Source: a virus (Duplodnaviria; Caudoviricetes). From it: 56,358 nt of DNA. The notes beneath the pieces are model-generated. The model was not told the DNA's origin. It did no database searches and worked only from the letters and a program-made list of their open reading frames with translations. Both the position numbers and the translations under genes were made by a program. The stretch's first letter is position 1. Each line of letters opens with the position of its first letter. The stretch covers positions 1 to 56,358 of IMG/VR virus record IMGVR_UViG_3300036770_007473; one strand, given 5' to 3'. Of the stretch, positions 33,029 through 41,167 are shown one piece after another.

Positions 33029-33528
33029 TACCACGCCTTGTTGTAATCTACTATTTCACAATTGCGACTGATGTCTTTGACAAAATACACGCATTCTGGT
33101 TCTGGATCGTTGGATATAGGAACTGCCAGCATCTGCCCATTTTTAAGTTTGGGTGCGTACCACGTGACTTCGTGATACACATCGACGATCTCGATGTCAG
33201 GGAAACTGGGACGGAAACTGGTCAATGGGTTGAACTGGAAGGCCTTAAAGCCCCGATCGTTGATCGATGTCAATGGCAGCATCTCTAGATCTCCCAGGTC
33301 GGGTTCGCCGATCAAGATCTGCCAGTCCACTGGCATCTTGATTTCCTGCTCACCGACTCGAAGCACCAGAGCCGGACTGCTAAAACTCTCAAGGAAGATC
33401 AAGGGTATGTAGTGATAATCTGGGTTAGCAGGATCGCTGTTGTCTAGTATGGCGAATCTCATATCATCCACTTCCTCGGGTAAATGATCCAGATCGTAGG
33501 CTGTGTTGTCAAGTGTCAGTATTCTCAT
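33028..33528 (-). CDS. hypothetical protein
   Basis: 166 aa; first gene behind a perfect promoter. Confidence 0.8.
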   Translation of the reverse strand: MRILTLDNTAYDLDHLPEEVDDMRFAILDNSDPANPDYHYIPLIFLESFSSPALVLRVGEQEIKMPVDWQILIGEPDLGDLEMLPLTSINDRGFKAFQFNPLTSFRPSFPDIEIVDVYHEVTWYAPKLKNGQMLAVPISNDPEPECVYFVKDISRNCEIVDYNKAW

Positions 33529-33534
33529 TGATTA

Positions 33535-33563
33535 ATTATAACTTTATATTCTCGTGATGTCAA
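33535..33563 (-). promoter_or_regulatory. perfect-consensus sigma70 promoter, leaderless transcript
   Basis: TTGACA-N17-TATAAT-N6-ATG. Confidence 0.88.
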
Positions 33564-34839: not shown

Positions 34840-36290
34840 TCCAGGCGTTCATGTGTGAAGGGATAGCGGGCTTCTTTGTAGTAGGCTTTGCGCTTGGTGA
34901 GATGTCGCTTGGCGAACTTGCAAGTAGAGGTTATGTCCCAGATCTGAACAAAGTCTTTGTCCTCTGCCTTGCGAATTCCGCGTCCAATACTTTGGATAAC
35001 CCTGACGAAACTCTTTCCCGGCTCCAGCAGAACAAGATTAAATATCCTAGGTATGTTAATGCCAACAGCAGCCACCCCGTATGTTGCCACGATGATCTTA
35101 TCTGTTGCTTCAGCCACTTCATCATATTCATCTTGTCGATCCTTGGCTTTGGTAGCCCCAGATACAAATACTGCACGATCTCCCAACCTCGAGACCAGTT
35201 CCTGACCTGCGCCAATGCGATCTACCAGGACCAGAGTATTTCCGGTCTTATTGACTTCGGCGATCACTGATGCAATGGTATCCAGGCGACCCGATTCTTC
35301 TAAGAGATATTTAAGTTCGCTCTGATAGTTCGTGTACTCTACATGGTCTACCAACTGCACTATGTTCACATGGCACTGTGCCAGCACACCACGATCCTGC
35401 AGTTCGGCCGCGGCCAATCTTGACACTACAGGTCCCAGGCTTACATGTATGGCTTGGAATTCAAAATCTTCTTTGGGCACGGTTCCGGTAAGACCCCAAC
35501 GGATAGGCACTTGCGACATCACGCCGGTGAGCAGGGTTTTCAGCGCATCAGCCTTGGCCATGTGTACTTCGTCCACGATCACACACACCACGTCCTCCAG
35601 GAACTCACCAATGGTGATGTCTGCTGATTGGTTCTTGGTGTTCTTAAGCAACACGTTGAGACTCTGCCAGGTGCAGATAGTGTGCTGTCGGCCAAACTCT
35701 TTGCGATCCCCAAAAAACACACCGGTGTCCAGGCCGAGATTTACATAGTCCTTTTCAGTCTGCGTCACGAGGCTCTTGTTGGGTACGATCACGATGGATC
35801 GACCATAAGGTGTCACAGCATGGCTTAGGGCCGCGGTCATCACGGTCTTGCCTGCCCCTGTGGCCACTTCTTGTATGCACTGTGGATTGGCCAAGAAGTT
35901 GTTGACGATCTCTATCTGATAATCACGTAATGTAACAGGTTCGCCGGCCTGAGGGTGTCCTCGGGGCCAGGCATATTCACTAAAGGTGTCTTCGGCCACA
36001 GGAGAGAACTCGAATGTGGTACTATACTCGCGCTGGTCATCCAGTTCGATGTCGTAATTATATTCTTCCAGGATGGGTATGATCTCGGGCAGGAGATTCA
36101 CGTAGGTGCTGCCACCCAATTGGAAAAAACTTATCTTGCCATCCCATCGTCCCAAACGAACTGCTGGAAGGTATCGGGCATAGGGCACATCGTATTTGAA
36201 TCGATTGACCAATGTTCGTCGAGCATCGAGTTCCAATCCCTCGATCTTGACATTGACTTCGTCGCGGATGATTAATCTTGCCTGTTTCAT
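34824..36290 (-). CDS. uvsW: SF2 DNA helicase, UvsW-like
   Basis: LRDYQ, ATGAGKT, DEVH, GLTGT, QSIGRGIR. Confidence 0.88.
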   Translation of the reverse strand: MKQARLIIRDEVNVKIEGLELDARRTLVNRFKYDVPYARYLPAVRLGRWDGKISFFQLGGSTYVNLLPEIIPILEEYNYDIELDDQREYSTTFEFSPVAEDTFSEYAWPRGHPQAGEPVTLRDYQIEIVNNFLANPQCIQEVATGAGKTVMTAALSHAVTPYGRSIVIVPNKSLVTQTEKDYVNLGLDTGVFFGDRKEFGRQHTICTWQSLNVLLKNTKNQSADITIGEFLEDVVCVIVDEVHMAKADALKTLLTGVMSQVPIRWGLTGTVPKEDFEFQAIHVSLGPVVSRLAAAELQDRGVLAQCHVNIVQLVDHVEYTNYQSELKYLLEESGRLDTIASVIAEVNKTGNTLVLVDRIGAGQELVSRLGDRAVFVSGATKAKDRQDEYDEVAEATDKIIVATYGVAAVGINIPRIFNLVLLEPGKSFVRVIQSIGRGIRKAEDKDFVQIWDITSTCKFAKRHLTKRKAYYKEARYPFTHERLEWMQK

Positions 36291-36296
36291 GTTGTG

Positions 36297-36325
36297 ATTG
36301 TACAGGCTTTATTTACAAAAGTCAA
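36297..36325 (-). promoter_or_regulatory. sigma70-type promoter, leaderless uvsW transcript
   Basis: TTGACT-N17-TACAAT-N6-ATG; TAAATA within the spacer. Confidence 0.75.
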
Positions 36326-36354
36326 AAAAACCGGTGCCGTTTTAGGGCACCGGT
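36324..36354 (-). terminator. intrinsic terminator
   Basis: ACCGGTGCC-loop-GGCACCGGT followed by a T-run. Confidence 0.85.
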
Positions 36355-36407
36355 GTCAAAAACCAGATCACCTAGGAGCTAGACTAAGCGAGTGATCCGG
36401 GCACTGC

Positions 36408-37427
36408 TCAACCGTGTCGCATGCAGGTGCTTTCGGCCAGCGCCTGCCAATTGGTGCCGATCTTGGTCAAATCCGCAATCTTCAGCGCCATGCGCAGGCT
36501 GATCTCACGCAACCTGCTGTGATTGTCCTGCATGAACTGCACGATTTCTTCACCCTGCTGGGGAGTGAGATCATAGTCCTGGAACAGATCACCTTTGCGG
36601 AAAATCTGTCGGATACGCAGGATCTTGTCGCGTGTAGTGTCCAGAGTGAGATCCAAGAAGTGGCATCGACTCTGCAGGGCCTCCAAGTGGTCCTGAAGTT
36701 TTTTGCTTTTGAGGTGATCGAACTTCAAGTTCGTGATAAAAATCACCGAGCCCTTGAAGTCGAACGCGTCTGGCACACCCTCACGGCGCAACATGGATGA
36801 ATCGGCATTCCAGTGGATGCGACGCCGCTTGCCAGAGTCCAGGGCGGCTTTGAGGATGTTCAAGGCAACATCATCCAGCAGGATCGAGTCGCAATCGTCG
36901 AACACCAGGACGTTCTGCGGATCTGAATTCTTGTACAGGGTGCAGTACAATCCGATGGGTGTCATGGCACCCTTGATCACTTGGTACTTTACCTTGCGGC
37001 TGGAGATCTTGTCAAACATGCCAGCCTTCTCTAATTGATACTCCACGCCGTAGGATTTGCCTACTCCGGGAGGGCCCACAACAATCATGGCACGGATGTC
37101 GCCGGCGATGGCTGCTTTGGTCATGTCGTCCAGGATCGAGAATCGTTGCTCGATACGATCCATGACCTGTTCATCGGTCTCTTCGGGTTTGATGAATTCC
37201 ACGACTTTGTCTTGCTTGATCACTTGCCGATCTCCTGTGATTTCGATGTCATCGATTGAGTCTACACGGATACGGATCTGCTCGGGCATACCCGGAAACA
37301 CTCCGTCATTACTTACCACGATATTGCCACCTTTGGAATCTGTCTGGAAATCGCGCACCAAGGTGAATTTCATACCACTGACATCTTGTCGACGATATTC
37401 GCCGTTACGGATCAGTACTTGTGTCAT
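36408..37427 (-). CDS. P-loop AAA-type ATPase
   Basis: GPPGVGKS, VLVFDDCD, IFITN, ALQSR. Confidence 0.88.
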   Translation of the reverse strand: MTQVLIRNGEYRRQDVSGMKFTLVRDFQTDSKGGNIVVSNDGVFPGMPEQIRIRVDSIDDIEITGDRQVIKQDKVVEFIKPEETDEQVMDRIEQRFSILDDMTKAAIAGDIRAMIVVGPPGVGKSYGVEYQLEKAGMFDKISSRKVKYQVIKGAMTPIGLYCTLYKNSDPQNVLVFDDCDSILLDDVALNILKAALDSGKRRRIHWNADSSMLRREGVPDAFDFKGSVIFITNLKFDHLKSKKLQDHLEALQSRCHFLDLTLDTTRDKILRIRQIFRKGDLFQDYDLTPQQGEEIVQFMQDNHSRLREISLRMALKIADLTKIGTNWQALAESTCMRHG

Positions 37428-37457
37428 TGCTAGGCTCCTATGTGTTATTGTCTAACT

Positions 37458-37486
37458 ATTATATGAAATTGGCAATTTTTGGTCAA
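37458..37486 (-). promoter_or_regulatory. early sigma70-type promoter
   Basis: TTGACC-N17-TATAAT. Confidence 0.82.
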
Positions 37487-37614
37487 CCACCGCGCAAACA
37501 CACTATGTTAGTGCTTACCAACCTACGGATCCATGATCCTGGACCTGGGTTATACGCCGTTTAGTGCTGACCTGGGCTGCTGCCAGGGCGAGACACCCTT
37601 TTGTCGCAATCTTA

Positions 37615-38288: not shown

Positions 38289-39059
38289 TTAAATCCAATT
38301 GGCTTTCACCACCGAATCCGATATTTCATGGGGTTTCGGATATCCATGGAAAATCATCACGTGCGTGTGGTTATCCAATACCGAACCTGCGCCGGGTCGC
38401 GCATATGTGCGATTTTTCATGTCCATACCACCGTCCTTGACCTGCCAGCGCCAACTCTTGACCAGGCCGGGATCTATGAATCTAGTGTCTTTTTCAGTGA
38501 GAACTGCGCTGAGATAGTCCTGGTCACCGTGATAGAGCCGAGTGATAGCATGGATGTTCTTGTCCCGAAAATCCTGCCAGATCCAATCGTAACGCACGGT
38601 ATCCCATAGCATCACGCTAGAGTTGATACCTTTCCAGTTAGGGCGCCATAGATGTCGGAAATCCCGTATGGTCCAAAAGTATCTGGGTTCCAGTCCGGTG
38701 ATCCAGTCTATGTTACGCACTATCACAGTATCCAGATCGAAATACAGCACACGCCCTTGTATTTGTCGGCTGTCAAACATCTGCATCTTGTACCACCATG
38801 CTCGTTTACGCCCAGCCATACCGGGCCAGTCTTCCAAGATGTGTTTGATCATGGTGGCCGGCACCGGGCGATCATGCTCAGTAAAAACATGGAAACGTAT
38901 TTCTGAGGTAAGATGCCTGTGTACCATGTTGTAGAGTTTTTCCACATACTCCCAGGCATAGAGATCGCCGTGGATCACACAGGCCACATCAAGCACAGCA
39001 GCGGCACGCTGTCGTTCTTGGCGTGCCAGGATGCGTTGCTGTTTGCTATCCACGATCAC
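38289..39059 (-). CDS. glycosyltransferase (GT-A, GT8-like)
   Basis: WWYKMQMF, LYFDLD, NSSVM, GDQDY, FHGYPKPH. Confidence 0.8.
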   Translation of the reverse strand: MIVDSKQQRILARQERQRAAAVLDVACVIHGDLYAWEYVEKLYNMVHRHLTSEIRFHVFTEHDRPVPATMIKHILEDWPGMAGRKRAWWYKMQMFDSRQIQGRVLYFDLDTVIVRNIDWITGLEPRYFWTIRDFRHLWRPNWKGINSSVMLWDTVRYDWIWQDFRDKNIHAITRLYHGDQDYLSAVLTEKDTRFIDPGLVKSWRWQVKDGGMDMKNRTYARPGAGSVLDNHTHVMIFHGYPKPHEISDSVVKANWI

Positions 39060-40515
39060 TCCACCATGGATATCGCTGTATCACTGCCAGAACTTTTTCT
39101 GGATAATTGGGCTCTACCAGAGTAGTGGCACATTTGTGATTGACCGCGAGATCTGCCCGATTCTGAGAAAAATAGTCATACACTTGATCCGCATCTCTGT
39201 GCTGTGTTTCTATGCAGCTCACGACCTTGCTCTTGATGCTGCCTTCGTCCCCCATCCATCCCCAATGCCAGCCCACATTGCCTTCGGTCCATACACAATG
39301 GCTGCGATCTTTCTTTTTTTGCGCGGTACCTACACCTGCCATGACGCCTTTATAGAGTTTGCAAGGATCCTGGAAATGGCGTTTCTTGGCCACCACATTT
39401 CCGGCCCAGTTCCTGTTGAGTTTCTGGTCGAATCTGTGCATGTACATCTCCAGGCTGCAACTCACAGGGCGGTCGCTTCTTTCCAACTGCAAAAATATGT
39501 CCGACACTCGGTCAGGGTCCAGTATTTCGTCGAGATCACTGTGCATGACTATGTCATCATCGTTACAGTCCGCATAACCCTCTGCTATCGCGGCACGCTG
39601 GCCATTTTCGATGTCCCAGTTGCTCCATCCTTCTGGCACATCCAATTTTATCACTTTCAATCGATCTCCGAGATGCGCATATCTCTCGATGTTGTCAGAG
39701 AGATTATAAGGCTTGGGCAATCCACTGAGTGTGCGATTGCCTTCGCACACTACCCAGCGATCCACCCAGTGTTTGGTGAGATCTATGCGCAGATCTAGCA
39801 TGTCGAATTCGTTATTAAAAAGAAAAGTATCAATTATCATAGGTCTTCCTAACCAATATCTTATCACGTCAGGATGGTAGAGATTGTTCCATGGTTTGCG
39901 ATTGCCGCTGCAAAAAAGTATGGCTGCTTCACCATTGGTGCGTTGCCGCCTGAATCTATCTGTGCGTATGGTACTATCTATGACATCTTGTATGATGCCA
40001 TGTGATTTGCTCGCTGCCACAAACGCTTGCTCTACTCCTACGCGATCGTGCCCTGGCGCATTGTTGTAGACTTCTATCCAGTGTTCAAATGGTTTGCTGC
40101 AAAATCGTTCCCAGATGTCACTGTGGTCGCCTTCCCAGTACATGATGGCAGAACAACTGATGTCACCACGCCAGGGATCGTTGCTCATCAAGAAACTGTG
40201 TCCGCGGCATTGCTCGATGAGATCAGCAAAATCGTCCACGATCAGCATGTCGAGATCGATGAACAGAGTACGACCAGTGAATCCGTGCTCTGCTCTGTGT
40301 ATCTGTATTTTCTGCCATGACTTCCAGCAGTGTTTGCGATCGCCGATGATGTCGATCAAGGGTCGGGTCTCGCAGAATTCCAGTTCAGCATCTGTCACAC
40401 ACACAAAACGGAACGGCACAGAGAGATGCTGTGTGATAGCATTGAGCATACGGCGCACTACATCTGGTGTCCATCCTGCCGACTCATTGACCTTGAGCAG
40501 GGTCACGATAGTCAC
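39046..40515 (-). CDS. fused GT8-like + GT17-like glycosyltransferase
   Basis: N-half FVCVTD, WQK, LFIDLD, RKPW; C-half MIIDTFLFNNEFDML, SDLDEI, GWHW; start uncertain (GTG 40515 chosen). Confidence 0.75.
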   Translation of the reverse strand: MTIVTLLKVNESAGWTPDVVRRMLNAITQHLSVPFRFVCVTDAELEFCETRPLIDIIGDRKHCWKSWQKIQIHRAEHGFTGRTLFIDLDMLIVDDFADLIEQCRGHSFLMSNDPWRGDISCSAIMYWEGDHSDIWERFCSKPFEHWIEVYNNAPGHDRVGVEQAFVAASKSHGIIQDVIDSTIRTDRFRRQRTNGEAAILFCSGNRKPWNNLYHPDVIRYWLGRPMIIDTFLFNNEFDMLDLRIDLTKHWVDRWVVCEGNRTLSGLPKPYNLSDNIERYAHLGDRLKVIKLDVPEGWSNWDIENGQRAAIAEGYADCNDDDIVMHSDLDEILDPDRVSDIFLQLERSDRPVSCSLEMYMHRFDQKLNRNWAGNVVAKKRHFQDPCKLYKGVMAGVGTAQKKKDRSHCVWTEGNVGWHWGWMGDEGSIKSKVVSCIETQHRDADQVYDYFSQNRADLAVNHKCATTLVEPNYPEKVLAVIQRYPWWSDRG

Positions 40516-40522
40516 TGCATCA

Positions 40523-41167
40523 TCAGAACTGGTAGATGATCTGGTAATGGTCATAGACAGGCAGGATGTTTTTCGATTCCAGGTACTCCACGATGCAACG
40601 ACCCTTTCCAGTCCTTCGACCGTCGTTGGCAAAACGAGCATTGTCATCGATGGCTACCACTGTGCCCGGGCGCAGGAAGGGCTCAATGGTCTGGAATTCT
40701 CTGAGATGGTGCTCAGCGCTGGGAGTGTCATCTTGCCATTTGACATCATAACTGTCAAGATAAAAAAGATCTATCTGATCGAGATCTGGTTGTTGCTGGA
40801 GCCAGGCCACACTGTCGCTGCAAAATACCGAAAATCGATCGCAGGAGATATGCTGCCGGGCTCGCTCACAGGCATCTGGGTTGATATCCACACTGCGCAC
40901 CCATCCGCCGGCGATGTCCACAAAAGATGAAAACAACACCGCGCTTTGGCCGTCTTTCCAGTTTCCAGGATCTCTGCAGGTACCAGTCTCGATGATATGA
41001 TATTCCGATCGCGGATTTTTTAACAGGAGGTCAAACATCAGTCGGAATCCATCGATGCGTTGGCCTAATCCGGGCCGCAGTCCTCGTTTGGCAGCATGCT
41101 TGTCTGCTGGTATTCGTTCGGCCAACAAGGGCGCAAACTGTTCCTGATACACACTGCGCCAAGTCAT
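40523..41167 (-). CDS. class I SAM-dependent methyltransferase
   Basis: IIETGT, SVDI, DLFYLDS, VAIDD; ATGA overlap. Confidence 0.8.
   Translation of the reverse strand: MTWRSVYQEQFAPLLAERIPADKHAAKRGLRPGLGQRIDGFRLMFDLLLKNPRSEYHIIETGTCRDPGNWKDGQSAVLFSSFVDIAGGWVRSVDINPDACERARQHISCDRFSVFCSDSVAWLQQQPDLDQIDLFYLDSYDVKWQDDTPSAEHHLREFQTIEPFLRPGTVVAIDDNARFANDGRRTGKGRCIVEYLESKNILPVYDHYQIIYQF

Follow-up and report, generated by a model that had tools for sequence, protein, structure and literature searches.

A covarying anti-RBS hairpin at the 3′ end of an early AAA+ ATPase unit in uncultured giant phages and its probable role in limiting translation of the same message

The ATPase transcription unit and its 3′ end

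The window analyzed here is the whole of a 56,358-bp IMG/VR viral contig, estimated to be 16% complete, whose gene content includes ribonucleotide reductase, a DnaB-like helicase, primase, and similar genes. Because related contigs reach up to 345 kb at 99% completeness, we take the window to be a fragment of a giant-phage genome. The element under study belongs to the transcription unit of an AAA+ ATPase gene, and all of its features lie on the minus strand, as follows.

37458 to 37486, minus strand: early promoter of the ATPase unit, of the sigma-70 type (TTGACC, 17 nt, TATAAT; 11/12)
37430 to 37440, minus strand: 5′ partner, the ribosome-binding region TAGGAGCCTAG (Shine-Dalgarno [SD] sequence AGGAGC), which covaries with the 3′ loop in relatives
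36408 to 37427, minus strand: AAA+ ATPase gene, 339 amino acids (phrog_1250, homolog of T4 NrdC.10; AAA+ fold with an N-terminal beta domain)
36363 to 36400, minus strand: display hairpin, 9 bp including one G.U, with stem covariation in 25 sequences
36372 to 36384, minus strand: 3′ partner, the core GTCTAGCTCCTAG of the anti-RBS loop, with one copy per genome
36358 to 36362, minus strand: short U-run after the display hairpin (5 in the window, 3 or 4 in most relatives)
36323 to 36354, minus strand: intrinsic terminator that closes the unit, with a GC-rich stem of 9 bp and a T7 run

The ATPase matched phrog_1250, a family without an assigned function, strongly (E of 4.8e-87) and the Pfam AAA family weakly; there was no match in NCBIfam and none below an E of 0.17 in a sequence search of the PDB. 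Its relatives number at least 594 viral contigs, and homologs were found by tblastn in 1310 cultured-phage records, the T4 counterpart being nrdC.10, which is labelled “unknown.” The predicted structural model (pLDDT 82) consists of an AAA+ core and an N-terminal beta domain, and Foldseek matched it to generic AAA+ proteins only, with NorQ and CbbQ giving the best TM-scores. Just upstream of the ATPase unit, likewise on the minus strand, lie genes for a 256-amino-acid PHROG glycosyltransferase (38289 to 39059) and a 533-amino-acid protein with a glycosyltransferase family 17 domain (39046 to 40647; E of 4.4e-16).

Transcription of the ATPase unit probably starts near 37451, the 5′ partner stops 3 nt before the ATG at 37427, and the gene ends with a TGA stop codon at 36410 to 36408. 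A sequence-only reading of this DNA had described a 9-bp stem with a 20-nt loop between this stop codon and the terminator, and we found it at 36400 to 36363, with the 5′ arm CCGGATCAC at 36400 to 36392, the loop TCGCTTAGTCTAGCTCCTAG at 36391 to 36372, and the 3′ arm GTGATCTGG at 36371 to 36363. The strong terminator (36354 to 36330, with its T7 run) follows 8 nt after the hairpin. RNAfold folded the display hairpin into a stem of 10 bp with an energy of −16.0 kcal/mol (z = −1.88), with 9 of 200 shuffled sequences folding as well, and the 96-nt 3′ region as a whole had a z of −2.77. A search of both strands of the region from 36200 to 37600 against Rfam yielded 0 matches at E values up to 10, and a blastn search of the element region against cultured phages yielded none. 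The U-tract of the terminator (36323 to 36329) continues into the −35 TTGAC (36320 to 36325) of the next promoter (TTTTTTTGACT), an overlap that is kept in most relatives. We also considered an antisense small ORF on the plus strand behind an RBS-like sequence and rejected it, since there is no start codon at a usable distance and the 5′ part of the loop varies in both sequence and length.

The sequence-only reading had further proposed that the loop can form 10 bp with one bulge on the ATPase's own RBS. This duplex was confirmed, with blocks of 7 and 3 bp flanking a single bulged C (TAGGAGC-C-TAG, 37440 to 37430), and the minimum free energy (MFE) fold of the predicted 1127-nt mRNA holds the pairing, with 10 of 11 nt paired. 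Among nine predicted full-length mRNAs folded, the window's included, six had the SD paired with the 3′ loop; the MFE folds that show this pairing open the stem, the combination of a closed stem with loop pairing being a pseudoknot, which lies outside RNAfold's model. The sequence TAGCTCCTAG occurs once in the window. Ranked by energy against 37,556 windows of 26 nt, the window duplex (−13.8 kcal/mol) is within the top 2.8%, and the loop pairs better with the RBS at 1930 (−16.1). In the window by itself, the match between loop and RBS is within chance; it is the comparative data that exceed chance.

The promoter of the ATPase unit is one of a set. TTGAC-N-TAYAAT promoters occur 6 times in the window versus 0.12 expected, and four of them carry TTGACC, with −35 hexamers starting at 2252, 1989, 1273, and 37486. 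Each of these four leads to an AGGAGC and then to a gene start (2193, 1930, 1215, and 37427, respectively), exactly as had been claimed from the sequence, and the remaining plausible SDs in the window, those of internal genes, are GGAGA or GGAGT, in line with the companion claim that they differ. Across five large relatives, GGAGC is the SD at 35 of 50 promoter-proximal genes. The early promoters (1215 to 2260 and 37427 to 37490 of the window, minus strand, and loci L082 to L131) have in common an extended −35 region, GGTTGACCA, and a leader that ends in AAGGAGC. The C of this motif cannot pair with the usual 16S tail, and it is kept even on genes whose RBS does not track the loop.

Other promoters in and around the unit have a different layout. 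Two on the minus strand, TTGACT-17-TACAAT (36290 to 36325) and TTGACA-17-TATAAT (33528 to 33563), have an ATG 6 nt past the −10 and no SD, and thus the helicase gene (start at 36290) and a 166-amino-acid ORF (start at 33528) look leaderless. Among 71 relatives, 36 have an ATG 5 to 9 nt past a −10 at the gene that follows the ATPase terminator. Five loci (L063, L067, L071, L073, and L080) carry a second consensus promoter ~120 nt upstream of the ATPase promoter, with an ATG after 6 nt, a very short frame, and no SD, which may represent a leaderless mini-ORF or a small RNA.

Conservation and compensatory change in relatives

For comparison, we took the best 80 of the at least 594 relatives' loci, in which the ATPase is preceded by the same promoter type. 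An anti-RBS element (the complement of the locus's own RBS core, followed by a T-run) was found at the end of the ATPase unit in 67 of the 71 loci with data, a count based on searches tied to the SD core and the following T-run; one of the 67, L036, is probably a chance match, and L030, scored as being without the element, does have the hairpin. L017, L036/L037, and L081 lack the element. Its location between the last stop codon and the predicted terminator in the window is the one common to the 67 relatives.

The element comes in three arrangements. In the first, which is that of the window, a hairpin with variable arms carries the invariant loop core GTCTAGCTCCTAG; in the second, GGTAGCTCCTG stands directly 5′ of a hairpin; and in the third, GATTGCTCCG precedes one hairpin and a second GCTCC or GCTCT lies in the loop of another. 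In at least 14 loci, one or more small ORFs come after the ATPase, linked to it through stop-start overlaps (TAAGATG, TAATATG), and the element then stands at the end of the unit, directly before the terminator and 200 to 1400 nt beyond the ATPase stop codon. Such inserted ORFs, some of them hydrophobic, were seen in L053, L054, L057, L060, L061, L066, and others, TGATATG being a further form of the overlap, and the overlap of their starts with the preceding stop suggests translational coupling to the ATPase.

Sense-strand copies of TAGCTCCT number 52 across the 80 loci versus ~7 expected, and the 13-mer loop core is single copy in four genomes, one of them complete. In 25 aligned hairpins, TAGCTCCT and the G that follows it are invariant, with conservation of at least 90% for GTC and for the A of TAG. 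Among eight cultured phages with a homolog of the ATPase, seven (T4, KVP40, Acinetobacter phage Stupor, Escherichia phage EcS1, Klebsiella phage ValerieMcCarty03, Vibrio phage D510, and Cronobacter phage LPCS28) have no anti-RBS match of at least 9 nt after the homolog. In Pseudomonas phage PA5oct (L132, 2650 to 2680), the 3′ arm of the first hairpin, ATGCTACT, complements AGTAGCAT between the SD and the ATG; this 8-nt match inside a stem arm is weak evidence.

The stem of the display hairpin varies in a compensatory manner. In the alignment of 25 hairpins, 9 of 10 stem pairs have changed on both sides, and there are 39 double-change cells versus 8.9 ± 2.4 in shuffles (0 of 500 reached the observed value, in a statistic that ignores relatedness); 90% of the stem cells are paired, versus 20 to 50% when the partner is slid along. 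Read on the mRNA strand, 26 distinct hairpins contain 216 Watson-Crick pairs and 19 G.U pairs, with no A.C at helix ends, which indicates that it is the sense RNA that folds. Conservation of the loop motif GCTCCT and covariation of the stem downstream of the ATPase in relatives had been set beforehand as a check on the proposal, and both were observed.

The loop also covaries with the ATPase RBS. Nearly all relatives have GGAGC as the core of this RBS, and their exact RBS-loop runs are 8 to 12 nt long and cover both SD and spacer. Within this frame, the two partners change together, as in GGAGCTA/TAGCTCC versus GGAGCAA/TTGCTCC and in the following pairs.

RBS AGGAGCTAG with 3′ element CTAGCTCCT
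RBS GGAGCTAA with 3′ element TTAGCTCC
RBS GGAGCTATA with 3′ element TATAGCTCC
RBS AGGAGCTATA with 3′ element TATAGCTCCT
RBS CGGAGCAA with 3′ element TTGCTCCG
RBS TAGGAGC-AGACTA with 3′ element TAGTCT-A-GCTCCTA, 13 bp with a bulge

Two divergent clades have replaced both partners. One combines AAGGAGCCAACC-ATG with the hairpin loop GGTTGGCTCC (pair GGAGCCAACC/GGTTGGCTCC), and the other combines ACGGGGCTAGAAACC-ATG with the loop TTTCTAGCCC (pair GGGCTAGAAA/TTTCTAGCCC), in which the SD core itself goes from A-U to G-C. Over 56 registers, offset −1 is UA in 31, AU in 7, and CG in 5; offset 2 is AU in 52 and GC in 4; and offset 5 is AU in 35 and CG in 9. The pair types interleave on a quick ATPase tree, which argues for several independent switches.

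On average, an RBS fits its own 3′ region better than it fits those of other loci, with a mean longest run of 7.50 versus 6.16 nt and a mean ΔG of −14.65 versus −12.51. None of 10,000 permutations reached either value, a figure that is inflated by relatedness, which the permutations ignore. The automatic choice of terminator was wrong at L057, L066, L072, and L073, an error that lowers the own-pair scores and so works against the hypothesis, and an exact longest-run scan over 2.5 kb downstream was noisy from A/T-rich chance matches. The blocks of the RBS-loop duplex contain 13 G.U pairs versus 461 Watson-Crick pairs, and A.C is common among the first flanking mismatches (30 of 120), so that the G.U and A.C counts for this duplex carry no strand signal.

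A second sample was built from 80 loci around the most divergent member, and there the element is missing or unrecognizable in 54 of the 77 evaluable loci. A distant clade making up 16 of the 80 loci (among them L160, L162, L163, L167 to L169, L174, and L182) has partners unrelated to those above, TGTTGAAAGGC standing at the RBS and GCCTTTCAACA at the 3′ end, the latter in an unstructured A/U-rich stretch 4 to 5 nt before the terminator. The finding of an unrelated pair in this clade implies that what is conserved is the principle and not merely a sequence.

The target of the loop and the probable effect of pairing

The proposal that had been drawn from the window was one of early shut-off through base pairing, by a 3′-UTR-derived RNA or by long-range contact. 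The pairing itself is strongly supported at the ATPase RBS, where changes occur on both sides, but the part of the proposal that made it a switch for all early genes found no support, since the other early RBSs do not track the loop. In four of five large relatives, the longest exact loop match among early RBSs is that of the ATPase, with runs of 9, 9, 8, and 9 nt versus at most 7 nt for the other early RBSs of those four genomes. In the clades with a GGTTGGCTCC or TTTCTAGCCC loop, promoter-proximal genes other than the ATPase carry unrelated RBSs such as AAGGAGCCTGC, AAGGAGTT, and AAGGAAC or are leaderless, and these RBSs have 6 nt or nothing in common with the loop complement. Pairing with other genes' mRNAs was thus not conserved in these two divergent clades. 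The ortholog of the gene at 2193 shows the same behavior, with the RBS GGAGCCACAG under both loops, CTAGCTCCTAG and TTGCTCCG. The ATPase RBS alone tracks the loop, and we conclude that the conserved target is the ATPase message itself.

These observations bear most directly on the idea that the hairpin and terminator are released as a stable small RNA whose loop shuts off AGGAGC-type early mRNAs in trans. The succession of a hairpin and a terminator is the usual small-RNA architecture, AGGAGC stands at all four TTGACC-promoter genes of the window and GGAGC prevails at promoter-proximal SDs in the large relatives, and in the window's clade several early RBSs (GGAGC-N-AGAC) pair by energy about as well as that of the ATPase or better, as at 1930 in the window and, at −19.4, in L113 and L126. 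The limitation of covariation to the ATPase RBS, the poor match of the other early RBSs in the two divergent clades, and the constancy of the 2193 ortholog under two loops all speak against it, as does the fact that the element is single copy and always attached to the ATPase unit; we therefore regard a trans-acting RNA as unlikely. A core 6-nt match between the loop and the other early RBSs does persist in the window's clade, where a side effect on other early messages is possible. As a speculation confined to that clade, a stable phage small RNA, released with a loop complementary to the consensus early leader (AGGAGC-N-AGAC), might silence the ATPase and all host-polymerase early messages; if this long shot were true, leaderless genes such as that of the adjoining helicase would escape, and the giant phage would possess a translational switch from early to middle genes made of RNA alone.

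We favor instead, with a probability of roughly three in four, an anti-RBS module that works as RNA from the 3′ end of the early ATPase unit, in which pairing between the 5′ UTR and the 3′ UTR of one mRNA would limit its translation. Partners that are complementary and are kept so by compensatory change, a fixed position at the end of the transcript, and a strand-specific covarying stem are what the loci have in common. The unit would be organized as promoter, 24-nt leader, ATPase (with small coupled ORFs in some relatives), display hairpin, and terminator, and the single-stranded loop would pair with the SD and spacer of the same message, either within one molecule or between two copies. Pairing would become possible when the 3′ end has been transcribed and would then occlude the 30S site, as is to be expected from a duplex extending over the SD and on through the spacer to the start codon. 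Such occlusion would cap the duration or the frequency of translation of each ATPase mRNA, and the paired RNA may in addition form a double-stranded target for RNase. The effect would thus probably be one of repression rather than stabilization, exerted in cis and timed by synthesis of the 3′ end.

Complementarity and covariation do not by themselves reveal the sign of the effect, and pairing of the two ends could act positively or as storage, protecting the message from 5′-end-dependent or 3′ exonucleolytic decay or, as in hok, silencing it until it is processed. There are precedents for both: according to excerpts of the cited work, a 14-bp pairing of the 5′ UTR with the 3′ UTR of Bacillus subtilis hbs modulates RNase Y cleavage (PMC5737220), and the tac/fbi pairing of hok stabilizes a closed, inactive full-length mRNA until 3′ processing (PMC9841398). 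In the phage unit, however, the duplex lies on the SD and spacer themselves and not on a separate leader element, so that blocked initiation is the direct expectation, and the loci show no sign of a processing step that would release the RBS; we consider a positive or storage role improbable.

Compensation between RBS and loop would look the same if the two were co-evolving inverted DNA copies, such as protein or recombinase sites flanking the ATPase unit as an invertible segment. This is very improbable, however, since the 3′ copy sits in a covarying hairpin with G.U tolerated on the mRNA strand only (19 G.U, 0 A.C), one copy is an SD and the other lies in a 3′ UTR, single-nucleotide bulges set the copies apart (TAGGAGC[N]TAG versus CTAGCTCCTA), and all loci with upstream sequence have the promoter and RBS directly upstream of the ATG, with no inverted state. 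Finally, although the hairpin is followed by TTTTT and the window's RBS match is within chance, a plain tandem terminator with a loop resembling an RBS by accident is hardly credible, because it is the loop that is invariant and the stem that varies, because the loop of 14 to 21 nt and a U-run of only 3 or 4 in most relatives depart from the short loop and U-tract of ~7 to 8 of a terminator, and because the element still complements the RBS in sequence types that are unrelated to one another, so that the comparative data contradict the counter-case named in the sequence-only reading (an unconserved loop in a plain tandem terminator).

Comparison with known systems

Literature searches (supplements aside) found no published description of this phage anti-RBS element. 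The enterobacterial CpxQ, SroC, and DapZ RNAs are trans-acting small RNAs derived from 3′ UTRs that regulate the mRNAs of other genes. The phage element resembles them in combining a 3′-UTR hairpin and terminator with a conserved seed but differs in that its only covarying target is the parent gene.

Closer parallels are found among messages with long-range contacts of their own, here drawn from excerpts of the sources. In B. subtilis, anti-SD-like 8-mers located hundreds of nucleotides downstream repress initiation and promote decay (PMC12697547, a preprint). The likeness lies in pyrimidine-rich sequences that pair with an RBS from far downstream; as excerpted, however, the B. subtilis work describes a general experimental effect of sequences that are depleted from genes, whereas the phage sequence is conserved and tuned to its own RBS (PMC12697547). 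The hbs mRNA of the same organism is likewise joined by a long-range pairing of ~14 bp between its UTRs, but in the excerpted description that pairing modulates a leader site for RNase Y and leaves the SD uncovered, showing that UTR pairing can tune RNase access instead (PMC5737220). In hok of plasmid R1, pairing of the 5′ and 3′ ends silences the full-length mRNA once the 3′ end exists, which is the logic that we propose for the ATPase message. The 3′ fbi of hok nevertheless pairs with the 5′ tac, the SD being masked indirectly by another box, and hok is activated by 3′ processing and has an antisense RNA, Sok, by the excerpted account (PMC9841398); none of these features was seen in the phage element.

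The best match is icaR of Staphylococcus aureus, in which, according to the excerpted report, pairing of the 3′ UTR with the SD blocks initiation and yields an RNase III substrate (PMC3868564). In both systems, the 3′ UTR holds an anti-SD motif directed at the SD region of its own mRNA species, and for icaR, too, pairing in cis or in trans between copies is left open (PMC3868564). Three features that mark an icaR-type cis element are found in the phage element, namely, a site in the 3′ UTR of the same unit (within predicted transcript limits), complementarity to its own SD, and compensatory change. The two have no sequence relation: the icaR motif as excerpted is UCCCCUG in a 3′ UTR of >100 nt, whereas the phage has a 13-nt loop in a 3′ UTR of ~85 nt, with the motif displayed in a hairpin loop or beside a hairpin, immediately ahead of the terminator of a phage early gene. 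The phage case is also known from comparison alone, with far more covariation than in the icaR excerpt.

If our reading is correct, the NrdC.10-type AAA+ ATPase stands out as a protein that these phages keep at a tightly controlled dose, and the element would offer an unusually clean natural test case of a 3′ tail that times or caps the translation of its message and a compact (~40-nt), portable part for self-limiting expression. Taken together, these results suggest that a large family of uncultured giant phages applies icaR-like logic to one of its early genes, a view supported by many independent compensatory changes that include a change in the SD core and the complete replacement of both partners.
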